Shown piece after piece: positions 7,969 to 14,593 of a DNA stretch of 64,000 nt. Under the pieces are notes generated by a model. It was not told where the DNA came from. It worked only from the letters and a program-made list of their open reading frames with translations, and made no database searches. The stretch covers positions 64,001 through 128,000 of IMG/VR virus record IMGVR_UViG_3300025519_000001; one strand, given 5' to 3'. Within the stretch, counting starts at the first letter, position 1. Each line of letters starts with the position of its first letter. The position numbers and the translations under genes were made by a program. Source of the stretch: a virus.

Positions 7969-8310
7969 ATGTATTTCTACGAAAAGGAATTAGCGCGAAT
8001 TAAAAATGATTGGGAGAAAACACACCCTGAACGAGTAAAAATATTCTCTCAACAATATTTAGAAAATGGCTTTTCAGATGAAGACACGTGGAATTTAGAT
8101 ATTCATCTTGCAAAACTAATTTACCCTAGACTCGTTCGATTTAAAGAAATAGCTTGTGTTGTTATAGACTGGCCTTTGAATGAGATTATAGAAGCATTTA
8201 GATTAATTGTTGATGAAAATGTAGATTTCTTTAACGAACCCGAAAATTACGAAAAAATAAAGAAAGGACTTAAATTATTTGCAGAGTATTATTTTAAATT
8301 GTGGTGGTGA
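7969..8310 (+). CDS. Hypothetical phage protein
   Basis: 113 aa ORF with RBS; ends LFAEYYFKLWW. Confidence 0.75.
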   Translation: MYFYEKELARIKNDWEKTHPERVKIFSQQYLENGFSDEDTWNLDIHLAKLIYPRLVRFKEIACVVIDWPLNEIIEAFRLIVDENVDFFNEPENYEKIKKGLKLFAEYYFKLWW

Positions 8311-8360
8311 TATAAAAAAGTATAGCTAAAAAGGGATGTAATTTAAAATTAAAATTCACC

Positions 8361-8378
8361 ATAAAAGACACGTTTCAT
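8361..8378. repeat. ATGAAA-N6-TTTCAT dyad at the left border of the CRISPR cassette
   Basis: ataaaa-gacacg-tttcat. Confidence 0.6.
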
Positions 8379-8400
8379 ATGCTAATATTCAAACTTTAAA

Positions 8401-8443
8401 GTGCGAATCCCAAGCGAACATAAAAACTCTAGGAGATTCGCAC
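8401..8443 (+). promoter_or_regulatory. CRISPR leader inverted-repeat motif, type I-C-like (copy 1)
   Basis: gtgcgaatc-N25-gattcgcac; near-identical copy at 10500-10542. Confidence 0.7.
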
Positions 8444-8452
8444 CAAATTTAC

Positions 8453-8622
8453 AGGGCGACTCGGCGTCCAAAATCGAGAAAGCATGTGAATTTACATATG
8501 ATTTACCTATTTCACATGCACTCGATAACGTATCTATATTTTAAAATGTGCTTATAGATACGACCATTCTCGTTTTTATAGGAGAATGCACTTTGTGCGA
8601 ATAAATATGCACACTTTTTGCT
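8453..8622 (+). ncRNA. Cas12f tracrRNA (copy 1)
   Basis: gggcg-actcgg-cgtcc hairpin, atcgag..ctcgat stem, two more stems, anti-repeat cactttgtgcgaat (8589-8602); architecture matches my recollection of the As/OsCas12f1 tracrRNAs. Confidence 0.8.
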
Positions 8623-8835
8623 GTTGCAATTCGCACATGCACATAAAGTGTGAGAAGGGAGACTAAGGCTAAAGTCTTTGCTAGGCTAGTTGCAATTCGC
8701 ACATGCACATAAAGTGTGAGAATGGGAGAATGTAGATCGTGACTCTGCCTTATAGTTGCAATTCGCACATGCACATAAAGTGTGAGCTAGATCGACTATA
8801 TATGCGGAGCTTAAAAATTATTGCAATTCGCACAT
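8623..8835 (+). CRISPR. CRISPR mini-array: 3 identical 32-nt repeats, a degenerate 4th, and 3 spacers (34, 34, 33 nt)
   Basis: GTTGCAATTCGCACATGCACATAAAGTGTGAG at 8623-8654, 8689-8720 and 8755-8786; partial repeat at 8820-8835. Confidence 0.95.
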
Positions 8836-8850
8836 ATATAATGTTAAAAT
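8821..8850 (+). promoter_or_regulatory. Putative cas12f promoter overlapping the terminal repeat
   Basis: TTGCAA-18 bp-TAAAAT with an extended TG; RBS gagggg follows, then ATG at 8868. Confidence 0.5.
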
Positions 8851-8867
8851 AATGAGGGGTTTTATAT

Positions 8868-10478
8868 ATGCCTAAAAAAGAAAAAGATGATAATAAGATT
8901 GTGAAAATTGTAAAAGTAGAGATTGATAGGATTGTTGGAATAAAAGAAGATCATTTTAATGTTATAGCAAAAAAACTTCAAAGCGAATCTCTTGATATGC
9001 GAAATCAATTTATCGCAGAGTTATGGAAGTGGAATAATTTTGAAGATGACTATAAAACAAGATACTACTCTAATCCAGATACAAAGGAATATTTATTTAA
9101 TAAAAAGAAAGGGAGTCCATATGGATCAATAAGGGGGTATGCTGAGGACGTAGTGAAAGAAAATAAAATATCGTATTCTGGTATAATTAGTGCAAACACA
9201 AATAAAGCTCTTAGTAGATGGAATAAATTCTTAAAAGATCGCGAAAACTATAGAGAAGGAAAATATCCAGCAATACCATGTTTTACAAGACCAGAAATTC
9301 TATTTCGTGCTTCTGATACAGAGATAATTAAGAAAGATGCAAAATATGAATGCAAATTACCTTTACTTGGTAGAGATGGAGTTAAAATTGCTGATCTTCT
9401 AGTTAAAAAATATGAAGAAGAAAAACGCACTGAAAAACTAAGAAGAGAAGAATTAAAAAAAGAATATAAGAATCTTGAAGAAAAAGGCGTAGAAATAACC
9501 AAAGAAATTAAAGATAAACTGTGGATTAAAGTTAAAAATAAAATTAAAGAAAAGAGTGAAGAAGAACTTAAAAATGATGAACCGATTATCACCTCTAGTA
9601 GCTATCAAGCTATTTTGAAACTATCTGATACATATGATAATACAACAATCATAAACAGAATTATTAATGGCGAATATAAAATGGGTGAAAGCAGTTTACG
9701 AAAATTAAAAAACAAATGGATACTATTTATCACATACAGTTTTGAAAAGCAGTCAAAGGGGCTTGATCCAAATATAATTTTGGGTGTAGATATAGGAGTT
9801 AATGATCCAGCACATATGATAGTTTATGATTCCAATAATAAAAAATGGGGGAAAAAGAAATGGATTGATGGTAAAGAAATCGAAGCGTTTCGTAAGAAAC
9901 GTGATGTTATGAAGAGATCAATACAAAAACAAGCTGCTTATTGTGGAGAAGGAAGAAGAGGACATGGGAGGAAAACAAGAATGAATGCGGTTGAAAAGAT
10001 TGATGGAATGATTAAGAGATTTAAAAATACATGCAACCATAAATATTCTAGATTTATTGTTGATTTTGCTTTAAAAAACAATTGTGGAGTAATTCAGATG
10101 GAAAACTTATCAGGAATTGCTGATGGAGAAAAGAAAGCAACATTCTTGGGTGATTGGACTTTTTATGATTTGCAACAAAAAATAAAATATAAAGCTGATG
10201 AAGTTGGAATTAAAGTTATATTTATTAAACCAAATCACACGTCTGCAAGGTGTAGTAATTGTGGTTTCATTCATGATAATAAATTAAAAGATATTTGGAG
10301 ACCAGAAACAAAACAATTCAAATGTATGAAGTGTGACTATGGACATAGGCGATTTGTCCACGCAGATGATAATGCAGCTAGGAATATTTCGCTTCCAGAT
10401 ATCGAAAATATTATCGAAGAACAACTAGACCTCCAAAACAAAGAAGCAAAACATGCATTAAAGTATATTGCAGAATAA
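8868..10478 (+). CDS. cas12f: Type V-F Cas12f1 (AsCas12f1-like, TnpB-derived) RNA-guided nuclease, 536 aa
   Basis: RuvC-I GVDIG (D308), RuvC-II QMENL (E412), CSNC..CMKC zinc finger, RuvC-III HADDNAARNI (D500), GRRGHGR and WTFYDLQQKIKYKA blocks; adjacent to array and tracrRNA. Confidence 0.9.
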   Translation: MPKKEKDDNKIVKIVKVEIDRIVGIKEDHFNVIAKKLQSESLDMRNQFIAELWKWNNFEDDYKTRYYSNPDTKEYLFNKKKGSPYGSIRGYAEDVVKENKISYSGIISANTNKALSRWNKFLKDRENYREGKYPAIPCFTRPEILFRASDTEIIKKDAKYECKLPLLGRDGVKIADLLVKKYEEEKRTEKLRREELKKEYKNLEEKGVEITKEIKDKLWIKVKNKIKEKSEEELKNDEPIITSSSYQAILKLSDTYDNTTIINRIINGEYKMGESSLRKLKNKWILFITYSFEKQSKGLDPNIILGVDIGVNDPAHMIVYDSNNKKWGKKKWIDGKEIEAFRKKRDVMKRSIQKQAAYCGEGRRGHGRKTRMNAVEKIDGMIKRFKNTCNHKYSRFIVDFALKNNCGVIQMENLSGIADGEKKATFLGDWTFYDLQQKIKYKADEVGIKVIFIKPNHTSARCSNCGFIHDNKLKDIWRPETKQFKCMKCDYGHRRFVHADDNAARNISLPDIENIIEEQLDLQNKEAKHALKYIAE

Positions 10479-10499
10479 ACTTTTTATACATTCTCTCTG

Positions 10500-10542
10500 G
10501 TGCGAATCCCAAGTTCACATAAAATCCCTAGAAGATTCGCAC
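10500..10542 (+). promoter_or_regulatory. CRISPR leader inverted-repeat motif, type I-C-like (copy 2)
   Basis: gtgcgaatcccaagttcacataaaatccctagaagattcgcac. Confidence 0.7.
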
Positions 10543-10558
10543 TTCTAATAAACATTAA

Positions 10559-10811
10559 GGGGCGACTCGGTAGAATGGAACATCTTAGTCAGTCATCCGT
10601 CCTAAATCGAGATAGTGCGGTTATACATATTTAACTTAACCGTTCACACTCGATAAGGTATCCCGAAAGGGTGAAACCCTACTCACAAAATCCGAGTAGG
10701 CACTTCATACAGAATATTTATGTATATTTATTCACACTTTCCGCAGTTGCAATTTATATGTACGTATGAAGTGTGAGAAAATACTAGATTAAGTCTTGTT
10801 ATGAAATTAGC
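10559..10811 (+). ncRNA. Second tracrRNA fused to a single variant repeat (10746-10777) and flanking guide (natural sgRNA/omegaRNA-like)
   Basis: Same stems as copy 1; anti-repeat cacttcatac (10701-10710) is perfectly complementary to gtatgaagtg in the variant repeat GTTGCAATTTATATGTACGTATGAAGTGTGAG. Confidence 0.8.
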
Positions 10812-10953
10812 TAAAGATATTACTTCGGCTCTGATTGAGCGATTCCCCCTAGAGTATGAAAAAGAAAATATTAAAATAAAAAATATTAAAGATAAAGATT
10901 TGGTTAAACGAATTAAAAAGAAAGGGTTAAGCGTAGAGTTGATCACAAAATAA
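10777..10953 (+). pseudogene. 5'-truncated ORF remnant or small ORF (..MKLAKDITSALIERFPLEYEKE..ELITK*)
   Basis: Open frame starts at the repeat 3' end; the ATG at 10801 has no RBS. Confidence 0.45.
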
Positions 10954-12406: not shown

Positions 12407-14593
12407 ATGAGGTTGCTTGTTGTAACAAGAGGGGCAATGGGAGCAGGAAAATCTACTTGGATTAAAAATGCTGGTCTTGAACAATATACAATATCTCCAG
12501 ACCAAATTAGACTAATGATTCAAACTCCCGTAATGAATGAGACTGGTGGATTTTCAATTAGTGTAAAAAATGAAAAACGTGTATGGAATCTCTTATTTGA
12601 AGTATTAGAAGATCGTATGAAACGTGGAGAGTTTACTGTTATCGATGCAACCCACTCAAAAACTGAAGACTTTAAGAAATATAAAAAATTACTTGAGAAA
12701 TATCGTTACAGAATGATATGCGTTGATTTTACTGATGTTCCAATTGAAAAAGCAAAAGAACAAAATAGAAATAGAGAAAGTTATAAATTTGTTCCCGAAG
12801 ATCGTATTGATAATTTGTATGAAAGATTTAAAACACAAGAAGTACCTAATTGGGTCAAAGTTATCAAACCAAGCGAGTATGAAGAAGCAGTAAAATATAC
12901 CCCAAGAGATTTATCTTCATATAAAAAAATACATCACATCGGAGATATTCATGGTTGCTACGAGCCACTTCTTGAATATTTTAAAAGTGGACTTAAAGAT
13001 GATGAATTTTACATTTTCACAGGAGATTACATTGATAGAGGCATCCAAAACGCAGAAGTATTGAATTGGTTATTCTCTATTAAAGATAGGGATAATGTAA
13101 TTCTACTTGAAGGCAATCATGAAAAATGGTTATGGTATTGGGCCAACGAAGAACAAGAAAATATTCGAAGCCGAGAATTTAAAAATATTACACAAAAAGA
13201 ACTTGAACAAAAAGGAGTTGATAAAAAAGAAACTAGACAACTATATAGAAAACTACATCAAATTGTTTACTATACATACGGAAATAAGCAAGTTATTGTA
13301 ACTCATGGTGGCATTACAACAATGCCTGAAAACTTACTTTATATTGCGACCAACCAATTTATTGATGGTGTAGGAAGTTATGAATTAGATGTTGACAGAG
13401 TTTTCTTTGACAATACAGGCGATAATATTTTTCAAATTCATGGTCATAGAAACATTCAAAGGTTTCCAGTTCAAGTTAATGAAAGATGTTTTAACCTTGA
13501 AGGACAGATTGAACATGGAGAATATCTTAGAATTGTTACCCTAGATGAAGATGGATTTAAAACAAATGAGATTAAAAACAATGTATTCTCTAATCGCTTT
13601 ACAGCCGTTAATGAAAGTAATTCAACAAACGAAGCTATTTTAAAATTAAAAAATGATAAAACAATTATCGAGAAAAATCTTGGAGATGGAATTGTTTCAT
13701 TTAATTTTTCTTCCAATACTTTCAAGAAAGGAAAATGGAACAAAAACAACTTACAAGCTCGTGGCTTATTCGTAAATCTTGATACAGAAGAAATCGTGGC
13801 AAGAAGTTATAATAAATTTTTTAATGTTAATGAACGATATGAAACTAAAATAGATACACTAGGAAGAAATCTAAAATACCCTGTTGACATTTATCTAAAA
13901 GAAAATGGTTTTCTTGGTTTGGTAGGATATAACTCAGTAAATGATGAAGTTGTATTTTGTTCTAAATCTACAACAAAAAGCGATTTTGCGGGCTGGTTAA
14001 AAGAAATCTTCATTGATTCAATCACATTCAACAATATTGATCTTGATACAATTAAAACATATTTAAAAGATAATAATTGTACTTTGGTTTTTGAAGTAAT
14101 TGACCCTCAAAACGATCCTCATATTATTGAGTATCAGAATAGAGAAATTGTTCTACTTGATATTGTGAAAAGGACATTTGATTTTCAAAAAGAACCATAT
14201 GAAACTGTTCAGAATATAGCACAACAATTTGGCTTTAAATGCAAAGAAAAAGTTACTTCTTTTACTAACTGGAATGAATTTTACAACTGGTACACAAATA
14301 TTAAAGAAAATAAAAAATTGAAAATTGAGGGGTATGTTCTAGAAGATGCTTCTGGATTTATGACAAAAATTAAACTCCCCTATTATGGTTTTTGGAAACA
14401 TATGAGAAAGATCAAAGAAATTCTATCAAAGAAAAATCCAGTGTTCGACAAAAAAATTCTTTTTAGTAAATCAATGAATGAAGTGTATAATTGGATGATT
14501 ACTAAAGATAAAGATTATCTTCAAAAATCAAGTATTATTCAATTAAGAAATGATTTTTACAAAGAAGTTAAAAATCCTGATTTTGAATATTGA
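12407..14593 (+). CDS. Polynucleotide kinase / metallophosphoesterase / T4 Rnl1-like RNA ligase fusion
   Basis: GAMGAGKST P-loop; GDIHG, GDYIDRG, GNHE phosphoesterase motifs; ARSYNKFFN, KENG and EGYV ligase motifs. Confidence 0.88.
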   Translation: MRLLVVTRGAMGAGKSTWIKNAGLEQYTISPDQIRLMIQTPVMNETGGFSISVKNEKRVWNLLFEVLEDRMKRGEFTVIDATHSKTEDFKKYKKLLEKYRYRMICVDFTDVPIEKAKEQNRNRESYKFVPEDRIDNLYERFKTQEVPNWVKVIKPSEYEEAVKYTPRDLSSYKKIHHIGDIHGCYEPLLEYFKSGLKDDEFYIFTGDYIDRGIQNAEVLNWLFSIKDRDNVILLEGNHEKWLWYWANEEQENIRSREFKNITQKELEQKGVDKKETRQLYRKLHQIVYYTYGNKQVIVTHGGITTMPENLLYIATNQFIDGVGSYELDVDRVFFDNTGDNIFQIHGHRNIQRFPVQVNERCFNLEGQIEHGEYLRIVTLDEDGFKTNEIKNNVFSNRFTAVNESNSTNEAILKLKNDKTIIEKNLGDGIVSFNFSSNTFKKGKWNKNNLQARGLFVNLDTEEIVARSYNKFFNVNERYETKIDTLGRNLKYPVDIYLKENGFLGLVGYNSVNDEVVFCSKSTTKSDFAGWLKEIFIDSITFNNIDLDTIKTYLKDNNCTLVFEVIDPQNDPHIIEYQNREIVLLDIVKRTFDFQKEPYETVQNIAQQFGFKCKEKVTSFTNWNEFYNWYTNIKENKKLKIEGYVLEDASGFMTKIKLPYYGFWKHMRKIKEILSKKNPVFDKKILFSKSMNEVYNWMITKDKDYLQKSSIIQLRNDFYKEVKNPDFEY

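Follow-up and report, generated by a model that had tools for sequence, protein, structure and literature searches.

Type V-F1 Cas12f nucleases are widely used as miniature genome editors and have no adaptation genes of their own, and among the type I-C systems the complex of B. halodurans is well studied. Leader motifs lying upstream of I-C, I-E and I-F arrays have reportedly been treated by Santiago-Frangos and coauthors in 2021 and 2023, and mini-arrays carried by viruses are said to have been described by Medvedeva in 2019. Leaders of type I-C possess subtype-specific motifs located up to 100-200 bp upstream, and integration in type I-F is guided by leader motifs, the 5′-GT and repeat length more than by the sequence of the repeat (10.1101/2023.05.26.542337); in vitro studies of I-C integration used a leader of 10 bp only (PMC6519985). 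The PAM of type I-C is TTC, and in types I and V it is placed 5′ of the protospacer (PMC8482600). Several systems gain spacers by means of adaptation modules encoded elsewhere: according to PMC11656645, which refers to Benz et al. (2024), plasmid-borne type IV-A3 acquires them in trans via host I-E, while VI-B does so via II-C (PMC8092290) and type III exploits the adaptation modules of type I (PMC8482600). Here, we consider a phage locus for which a first-pass annotation had proposed that arrays served by a Cas12f effector gain spacers through the I-C adaptation machinery of the host.

The window, i.e. the whole stretch of DNA analysed (64,000 nt), covers bases 64001-128000 of the virus record IMGVR_UViG_3300025519_000001. 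The record comprises 154,759 bp, is 96% complete and has kin among SPbeta-like Bacillus phages and one Alicyclobacillus phage (~49% identity in the kinase-phosphatase-RNA-ligase protein). At 12407-14593 the window encodes a 728-aa protein in which P-loop kinase, metallophosphatase and RNA ligase of T4 Rnl1 type are fused (Pfam), a Pnkp/RNA-repair enzyme also present in SPbeta-like phages. Features of the CRISPR locus are collected in Table 1. Its 536-aa open reading frame matches Pfam PF07282 (5.6e-17) and the AsCas12f chains 8j3r, 8j12 and 7wju from PDB (E from 1e-63 to 4e-66), and by these matches is classified as an AsCas12f1-like effector with the RuvC/TNB zinc-ribbon in its C-terminal half. 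The two tracrRNA-like units align with each other, their predicted stems being preserved through compensating changes, and both fold in silico far more stably than shuffled sequences (z of -7.1 and -3.5). Judged by effector and putative tracrRNA, the locus is a phage-borne type V-F1 CRISPR system. Families of Cas1, Cas2 and Cas4 gave no match anywhere in the 96%-complete phage genome, and a cas1 gene of the phage's own is thereby not in evidence.

Table 1. Features of the phage CRISPR locus, in coordinates of the window.
Feature	Position	Strand	Basis or remark
Candidate extended -10 (TGcTAATAT)	8380..8388	+	Read from sequence, just 5′ of element 1
Element copy 1 (43 bp, distal I-C-type leader element)	8401..8443	+	50.5 bits, E 1.2e-14, profile R1
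tracrRNA-like gene 1, nested between element 1 and array 1	8453..8622	+	Fold z-score -7.1; homologous to unit 2
Anti-repeat hairpin and T-run ending tracrRNA-like gene 1	8594-8622	+	Terminator-like site; also forms leader end TTTGCT
CRISPR array 1	8623..8851	+	32-nt repeats and spacers; spacers vary in sister phages
Array 1 repeats, 32 nt	starts 8623, 8689, 8755; degenerate fourth at 8820	+	
Array 1 spacers	8655-8688, 8721-8754, 8787-8819	+	34, 34, 33 nt
cas12f, 536 aa, AsCas12f1-like type V-F1 effector	8868..10478	+	Pfam and PDB chain matches
Element copy 2 (43 bp)	10500..10542	+	46.1 bits, E 2.6e-13, profile R1
tracrRNA-like gene 2, paralogue of gene 1	10560..10745	+	Alignment of units and fold
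Unit 2: one diverged 32-nt repeat (10746-10777) and guide-like stretch	10746..10811	+	

Both units are preceded by the 43-nt inverted-repeat motif that had been noticed at first reading, its second copy starting 21 nt past the stop codon of cas12f. Element 1 consists of the inverted arms GTGCGAATC/GATTCGCAC, with the arm words GTGCGAA/TTCGCAC, and of the core AAG..CATAAAA..GG.G; elements 1 and 2 are identical at 37 of 43 bases. The 14-mer opening the element occurs in the window exactly twice, and the number of its near-matches there was reached by none of 100 shuffles. Over the phage genome as a whole, one further near-match (G000, 129214) was rejected as a chance occurrence, because the second arm is absent and the site falls inside coding sequence. 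For comparison with type I-C, profile R1 was built solely from 51 distinct bacterial I-C leader elements, the window standing outside the training set. Applied to the 64-kb window, it matched both copies over the full length on the plus strand, the next best score being 8 bits. By profile, the window leader is thus classed as an I-C leader, and the likeness to Bacillota I-C leaders proposed at first reading is borne out by the profile at E ~1e-14.

The distribution of the element among I-C leaders was traced with two patterns. A loose one, demanding the arms only, produced over viral contigs a noisy list, on which ~35 sequences have the asymmetric core of the window (AAG, ACATAAAA, C.GGGAG); most of these precede canonical I-C-type repeats with the leader end TTTGCT/GTCGC (here and below the slash marks the border between leader and repeat). 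The strict pattern, combining the arms with CRTAAAA and scanned over one genome per prokaryote species, revealed at least 120 loci versus ~2 expected by chance according to our own estimate. Among the matches listed, all belong to Bacillota, the hosts being Lachnospiraceae, Oscillospiraceae, Paenibacillus, Bacillus, Alkalihalobacillus, Virgibacillus, Enterococcus, lactobacilli, Megasphaera and Erysipelotrichaceae, and in ~110 of the 120 listed the element lies 5′ of a GTCGC...GTGGATTGAAAT array in a single orientation. Of the 120 8-kb stretches listed, 52 contain a cas1 gene of I-C type; in Bacillus caseinilyticus (L137) the Pfam-confirmed cas4-cas1-cas2 genes are situated immediately upstream. 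The element starts from -1 to +30 nt relative to the cas2 stop codon in 49 of the 55 listed I-C loci having cas2. For a boundary between gene and leader this junction is unusually tight and conserved, the last base of the stop codon being the first G of the element in 23 of the 55 I-C loci (among L122-L241). The same element also stands at the head of secondary arrays remote from any cas gene, and of arrays in viral contigs that have no cas genes, from which it follows that it belongs to the array and not to cas2. In Bacillota the element is a true part of I-C leaders, with a fixed orientation, and travels with the array. Its description was not encountered in the literature searched by sequence and keyword, a search outside which the work of Santiago-Frangos et al. 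from 2021 lay.

The distance from the element to the first repeat in I-C leaders is mostly 104-138 bp, rarely 160-175 bp, and forms clusters at ~105, 115-120, 123-130 and 133-138 bp, which at a period of 10.5 bp gives a Rayleigh value (n multiplied by squared R) of 13.3 for 59 leaders, the statistic ignoring their relatedness. The leader end in the same number of leaders follows the consensus T-T-Y-G-C-W, after which the repeat begins with GT, so that the ending GCT/GTCGC given by the annotation takes the form TTYGCW/GTCGC, and I-C repeats are ~32 nt long, as it had also stated. Near-invariant positions of the element comprise the outer seven bases of both arms, C9, A12-A13-G14, C19-A25 and G31-G33/G35, part of them being fixed by the search pattern itself, and the sequence changes little across Bacilli, Clostridia, Negativicutes and Erysipelotrichia. 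The half-sites are ~36 bp apart from centre to centre, a spacing that may approximate the span measured by the Cas1-Cas2 complex. Several viral contigs (L099, L108, L111, L047, L017, L119, L069/L070) bear a single I-C-type array or two in tandem, each behind a complete I-C leader that contains the element, and no cas1, cas2 or cas4 was found in their fetched stretches. Related contigs of this kind have older spacers in common and extra spacers at the leader end (e.g., L108 compared to L111/L047); they look like cas-less phage I-C arrays fed by the host.

How closely the window follows this layout depends on the part considered. Leader 1 ends with ...TTTTTGCT at 8622, and the junction TTTGCT/GTTGCA, read in this way from the beginning, fits the I-C consensus at six of six positions; the end of leader 2, TCCGCA/GTTGCA, fits it at five of six. 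The geometry of 32-nt repeats and 33-34-nt spacers was likewise reproduced. The gap between element and repeat amounts to 179 bp in unit 1 and 203 bp in unit 2, the first being on the helical phase of I-C leaders (126.6 bp plus five turns) and the second ~3 bp off it. The window repeats agree with the I-C family in the length of 32 nt and in the first bases, with 12-14 matches over 30 positions (z 1.6-2.2), and are devoid of the I-C end GGATTGAAAT; the exact 32-nt repeat was absent among the viral and metagenome contigs searched. The locus is not a type I-C array, from which it departs in repeat family, in linked cas genes and in spacing.

The same design was found beside homologues of Cas12f with 35-47% protein identity, where the element heads tracrRNA and array both in viral sequences (contigs L015/L076, L028 and L065, human-gut phage record L253) and in bacterial ones (L199 from Oscillibacter, L213, L221). 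Typically for V-F loci, the cas12f stop codon abuts the element, tracrRNA begins 3-20 nt further and the array comes 137-140 bp later; cas1, cas2 and cas4 were not found in the fetched stretches of these relatives. A pattern joining the 3′ arm of the element with the start of tracrRNA revealed 20 metagenome loci of this same design and had no match in viral contigs, and the search for related loci with a single Cas12f protein as query returned no viral relatives. By profile R1 the window copies score highest among all V-F loci, L199, L221, L253, L015 and L028 reaching 33-46 bits. In most rumen Cas12f loci the element is decayed (<19 bits), yet tracrRNAs are intact and 4-6 repeats are present, which implies that the element is not required for the existence of the array, for Cas12f or for tracrRNA. 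Thus, the element is retained in some V-F lineages and lost from others. Repeats of L199, L213 and L065 are clearly I-C-like (z ~5), and in genome G004 the element of an array with repeats of GTTGCAAC type differs by 1 nt from the element of the resident I-C array. Two of the five bacterial genomes with related loci have cas8c or I-C cas1, and no I-C genes were seen in the other three, the genomes being MAGs, which as such do not demonstrate absence; this Cas12f clade was present in two of 301 sampled Oscillospiraceae genomes, too few for co-occurrence statistics.

Three relatives of the locus deserve separate mention. In L221 (MAG of Bacillota bacterium OH_SBlB_51) the element is 125 bp away from the array and a tracrRNA-like sequence ACTCTCGATAAGGTAT... 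lies upstream of it; apparently the tracrRNA gene encloses the element, with I-C-like spacing kept. Two cultured phages, Alicyclobacillus phage MMB025 (L252, PV686781.1) and Bacillus phage Mgbh1 (L251, KU665491.1), encode Cas12f homologues annotated as 'transposase' and carry tracrRNA-like RNA together with mini-arrays. The element of MMB025, whose arms have changed in step (GCGCGAA..TTCGCGC), follows a truncated repeat and precedes the ribosome-binding site of cas12f, while Mgbh1 has kept only the 5′ half of the element, flanked by the array and the ribosome-binding site of cas12f. Both phages are usable as laboratory models.

The association with tracrRNA raises the question of whether the element merely forms part of the mature tracrRNA scaffold needed by Cas12f. 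It always adjoins the tracrRNA gene in V-F loci, and in unit 1 the 5′ arm of the element equals the anti-repeat word GTGCGAAT and the 3′ arm the repeat word ATTCGCAC, the unit-1 places of these words being 8595-8602, 8629-8636 and the repeats. The window contains 11 copies of the 8-mer GTGCGAAT versus 1.1 expected; the two elements account for four of them and the repeats of unit 1 for another four (as ATTCGCAC), and one more belongs to the anti-repeat of unit 1. Since the words are shared by element, anti-repeat and repeats, the repeat:anti-repeat duplex of unit 1 copies the stem of the leader element. In unit 2, repeat and anti-repeat have neither word though element 2 is intact; furthermore, the linker that separates the conserved tracrRNA stem from the element may be as short as 3 nt or as long as 20 nt, many Cas12f-tracrRNA-array loci are intact despite a decayed element, and over 100 copies in I-C leaders occur with neither tracrRNA nor Cas12f. 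Inclusion of the motif in mature tracrRNA, considered already at first reading, is contradicted by its position outside the predicted fold and by its occurrence in more than 100 genomes lacking tracrRNA. A scaffold function of the element therefore appears extremely improbable, and on the folding prediction the element stands apart from the tracrRNA fold as a module of its own.

Whether the element works as DNA or as RNA may be judged from the mode of its conservation. In 101 I-C leaders the variable stem-side positions show no co-variation, and position 8:36 is C.A in 42 of them, both arms reading GTGCGAAY. A site in DNA that is recognized by a protein accounts better than a hairpin in RNA for the combination of helical phasing, a core conserved though unpaired and stem positions that do not co-vary, phasing being expected for a protein bridge at the DNA level and not for a hairpin. 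The alternative implies a transcribed stem-loop, either at the 5′ end of the tracrRNA/pre-crRNA precursor or at the 3′ end of the upstream mRNA, which stabilizes the transcript or marks it for processing. In its favour, the arms form an independent hairpin of 7-9 bp in the minimum-free-energy structure of unit 1, the arms of MMB025 are changed on both sides and some metagenome copies have G.U-compatible arms. Candidate -10 boxes are located just 5′ of the element in the window, L028, L082 and L040; the site in the window was not called by the consensus promoter scan, which needs a -35 box, and its usage would place element 1 within the transcript. On the other hand, the core is conserved as a sequence and not as pairs, C.A is frequent at 8:36 and the variable stem positions do not co-vary, phasing relative to the repeat is left unexplained, the strong promoter TTGTAA-17-TATAAT of L184 is situated downstream of the element, and the region has no match in Rfam. 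We regard an RNA-level function as rather improbable, though less so than the role in the scaffold.

A different possibility is that I-C leader and array were captured long ago by the Cas12f clade and that the element has been kept for binding of a regulator or as a boundary (insulator) separating the upstream gene from the guide-RNA unit rather than for integration, the arrays being changed by phage recombination. Such a transcriptional role is consistent with the position of the element right after the stop codon of cas2 (in the 49 of 55 I-C loci mentioned above) and of cas12f (in many V-F loci), with the start of tracrRNA 3-20 nt past it in all V-F loci and with its placement directly 5′ of the cas12f ribosome-binding site in MMB025 and Mgbh1; helical phasing could equally reflect the position of an activator site relative to a promoter. 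However, no sigma-A-like promoter is readable by eye within the element, and promoter-like sites of I-C leaders are sparse and scattered, mostly 50-120 nt 3′ of it. The modules of type I-C include no regulator, and nevertheless the element is near-invariant across four classes of Bacillota, as would follow from its recognition by a protein that the mobile I-C module supplies; it also stays with cas-distant secondary arrays and with cas-less arrays of viral contigs. A regulatory or boundary function is accordingly considered unlikely, while remaining the strongest competitor of a site read by the integrase.

The state of the arrays in natural populations was assessed from contigs of four metagenome runs (three labelled as bioreactor and one unlabelled) mapped to 8300-10900, which represent sister phages ~98% identical in cas12f. 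In run X3 a different spacer stands between the unit-1 repeats and the last spacer is replaced. Unit 2 in sister phages has the form repeat-spacer-repeat with different spacers of 34 nt (X2) and 33 nt (X4), and further differing sequences follow the unit-2 repeat. Both phage arrays change their spacers in nature, the contigs leaving the order of spacers open. Some metagenome contigs join 8574 (middle of tracrRNA 1) to 10753 (repeat of unit-2 type) with 2178 bases skipped, at a depth of 74 in run X3 and 2 in X2; this junction may be a recombinant of the paralogous units or may come from a sister phage whose unit 1 is organized in another way. Protospacers for array 1 were not found in INPHARED phages or PLSDB plasmids, and none for the spacers were found in the phage's own genome or in any fetched locus; a match of 26 nt between L211 and the phage was discarded as promoter-like sequence and not a spacer.

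We consider acquisition of spacers in trans by the host I-C Cas4-Cas1-Cas2 to be the best explanation of the locus, with our confidence in it about evenly balanced. The phage arrays appear to sit behind leaders of I-C design, comprising the distal element, the TTTGCT end, the 32-nt repeat starting with GT and 33-34-nt spacers. Acting as DNA, the element would be the place where the I-C integrase docks or is positioned, by analogy with leader motifs found 100-200 bp 5′ of the repeat in I-E, I-F and I-C. Upon infection or lysogeny of an I-C-bearing host, the phage arrays would receive new spacers from the integrase of that host. Type I-C picks 5′-TTC protospacers and places the PAM-side end of the spacer beside the upstream repeat, and given this selection and the type V-like geometry, spacers obtained in such a way would be directly usable by a Cas12f with T-rich PAM. 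The tracrRNA-like gene occupies the stretch that is plain leader DNA in I-C loci.

The proposal made at first reading, i.e. loading by host I-C in trans, thus stands in part. It is favoured by the absence of adaptation genes from a phage whose arrays vary among sister phages nonetheless, by the match to the I-C profile, the leader end and the same architecture in other Cas12f loci, and by the array of G004, in which repeats of GTTGCAAC type go with an element 1 nt away from the resident I-C one. It is weakened by gaps beyond the I-C range, unit 2 being also off phase, and by a repeat that is barely I-C-like; by I-C markers in only two of the five bacterial genomes (MAGs) with related loci; by rumen loci holding arrays despite the decayed element; by MMB025 and Mgbh1, whose element or its half is not in leader position; and by the contact of the element with the upstream stop codon in both I-C and V-F loci, which fits a role at the transcript level. 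Differences in spacers between sister phages could also come from recombination between arrays. A wider scheme is offered more tentatively and is, as a whole, somewhat less probable than acquisition in trans itself: the element would be the integrase docking site of Bacillota I-C, an IHF-free counterpart of those in I-E and I-F, the clade of AsCas12f/OsCas12f, in bacteria as well as phages, would have arisen through capture of an I-C leader with its array and nesting of the tracrRNA gene inside that leader, and the host would continually re-arm the nuclease of the phage against rival phages.

Compared to Bacillota I-C leaders, such as those of Bacillus caseinilyticus, Alkalihalobacillus, Paenibacillus and Lachnospiraceae, the window has the same element in the same orientation, the TTYGCW/GT end, the 32-nt repeat, spacers close to the 33-35 nt of type I-C and, in unit 1, the helical phase. 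It differs in the effector (Cas12f instead of Cascade-Cas3), in the missing set of linked cas3-cas5-cas8c-cas7-cas4-cas1-cas2 genes, cas4-cas1-cas2 included, in the tracrRNA gene filling the leader, in the gap of 179 or 203 bp versus 104-138 bp, and in a repeat lacking the I-C signature at the 3′ end. With the V-F1 systems of AsCas12f1 and OsCas12f1 (formerly V-U3) it shares a miniature effector, tracrRNA 5′ of a short array and the absence of a module for adaptation, while a single gene flanked by two tracrRNA/array units, in the genome of a 155-kb phage, sets it apart; V-F1 arrays carrying the I-C leader element were not described in the papers searched. Like CRISPR systems of mobile elements that gain their spacers in trans, the locus has no cas1 or cas2 of its own, its leader mimics that of a putatively co-resident system and its spacers turn over; unlike them, it mimics the leader clearly and the repeat not, and acquisition here is proposed from sequence. 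Trans acquisition by mobile-element CRISPR is in itself of an already known kind, the pairing of V-F with I-C not being among the cases cited above, and a class 2 V-F/class 1 I-C combination with a leader-nested tracrRNA gene was not met in the papers searched. Because the shared and highly conserved leader element points to I-C Cas4-Cas1-Cas2 as the donor, the origin of V-F1 spacers becomes directly testable with known proteins. Apart from the phage, a sharply conserved leader element of Bacillota I-C systems is hereby defined, 43 bp long, phased to the repeat and abutting cas2. If acquisition in trans is true, the class 2/class 1 pairing would join the few known cases of this kind, with a phage exploiting the adaptive immunity of its host.
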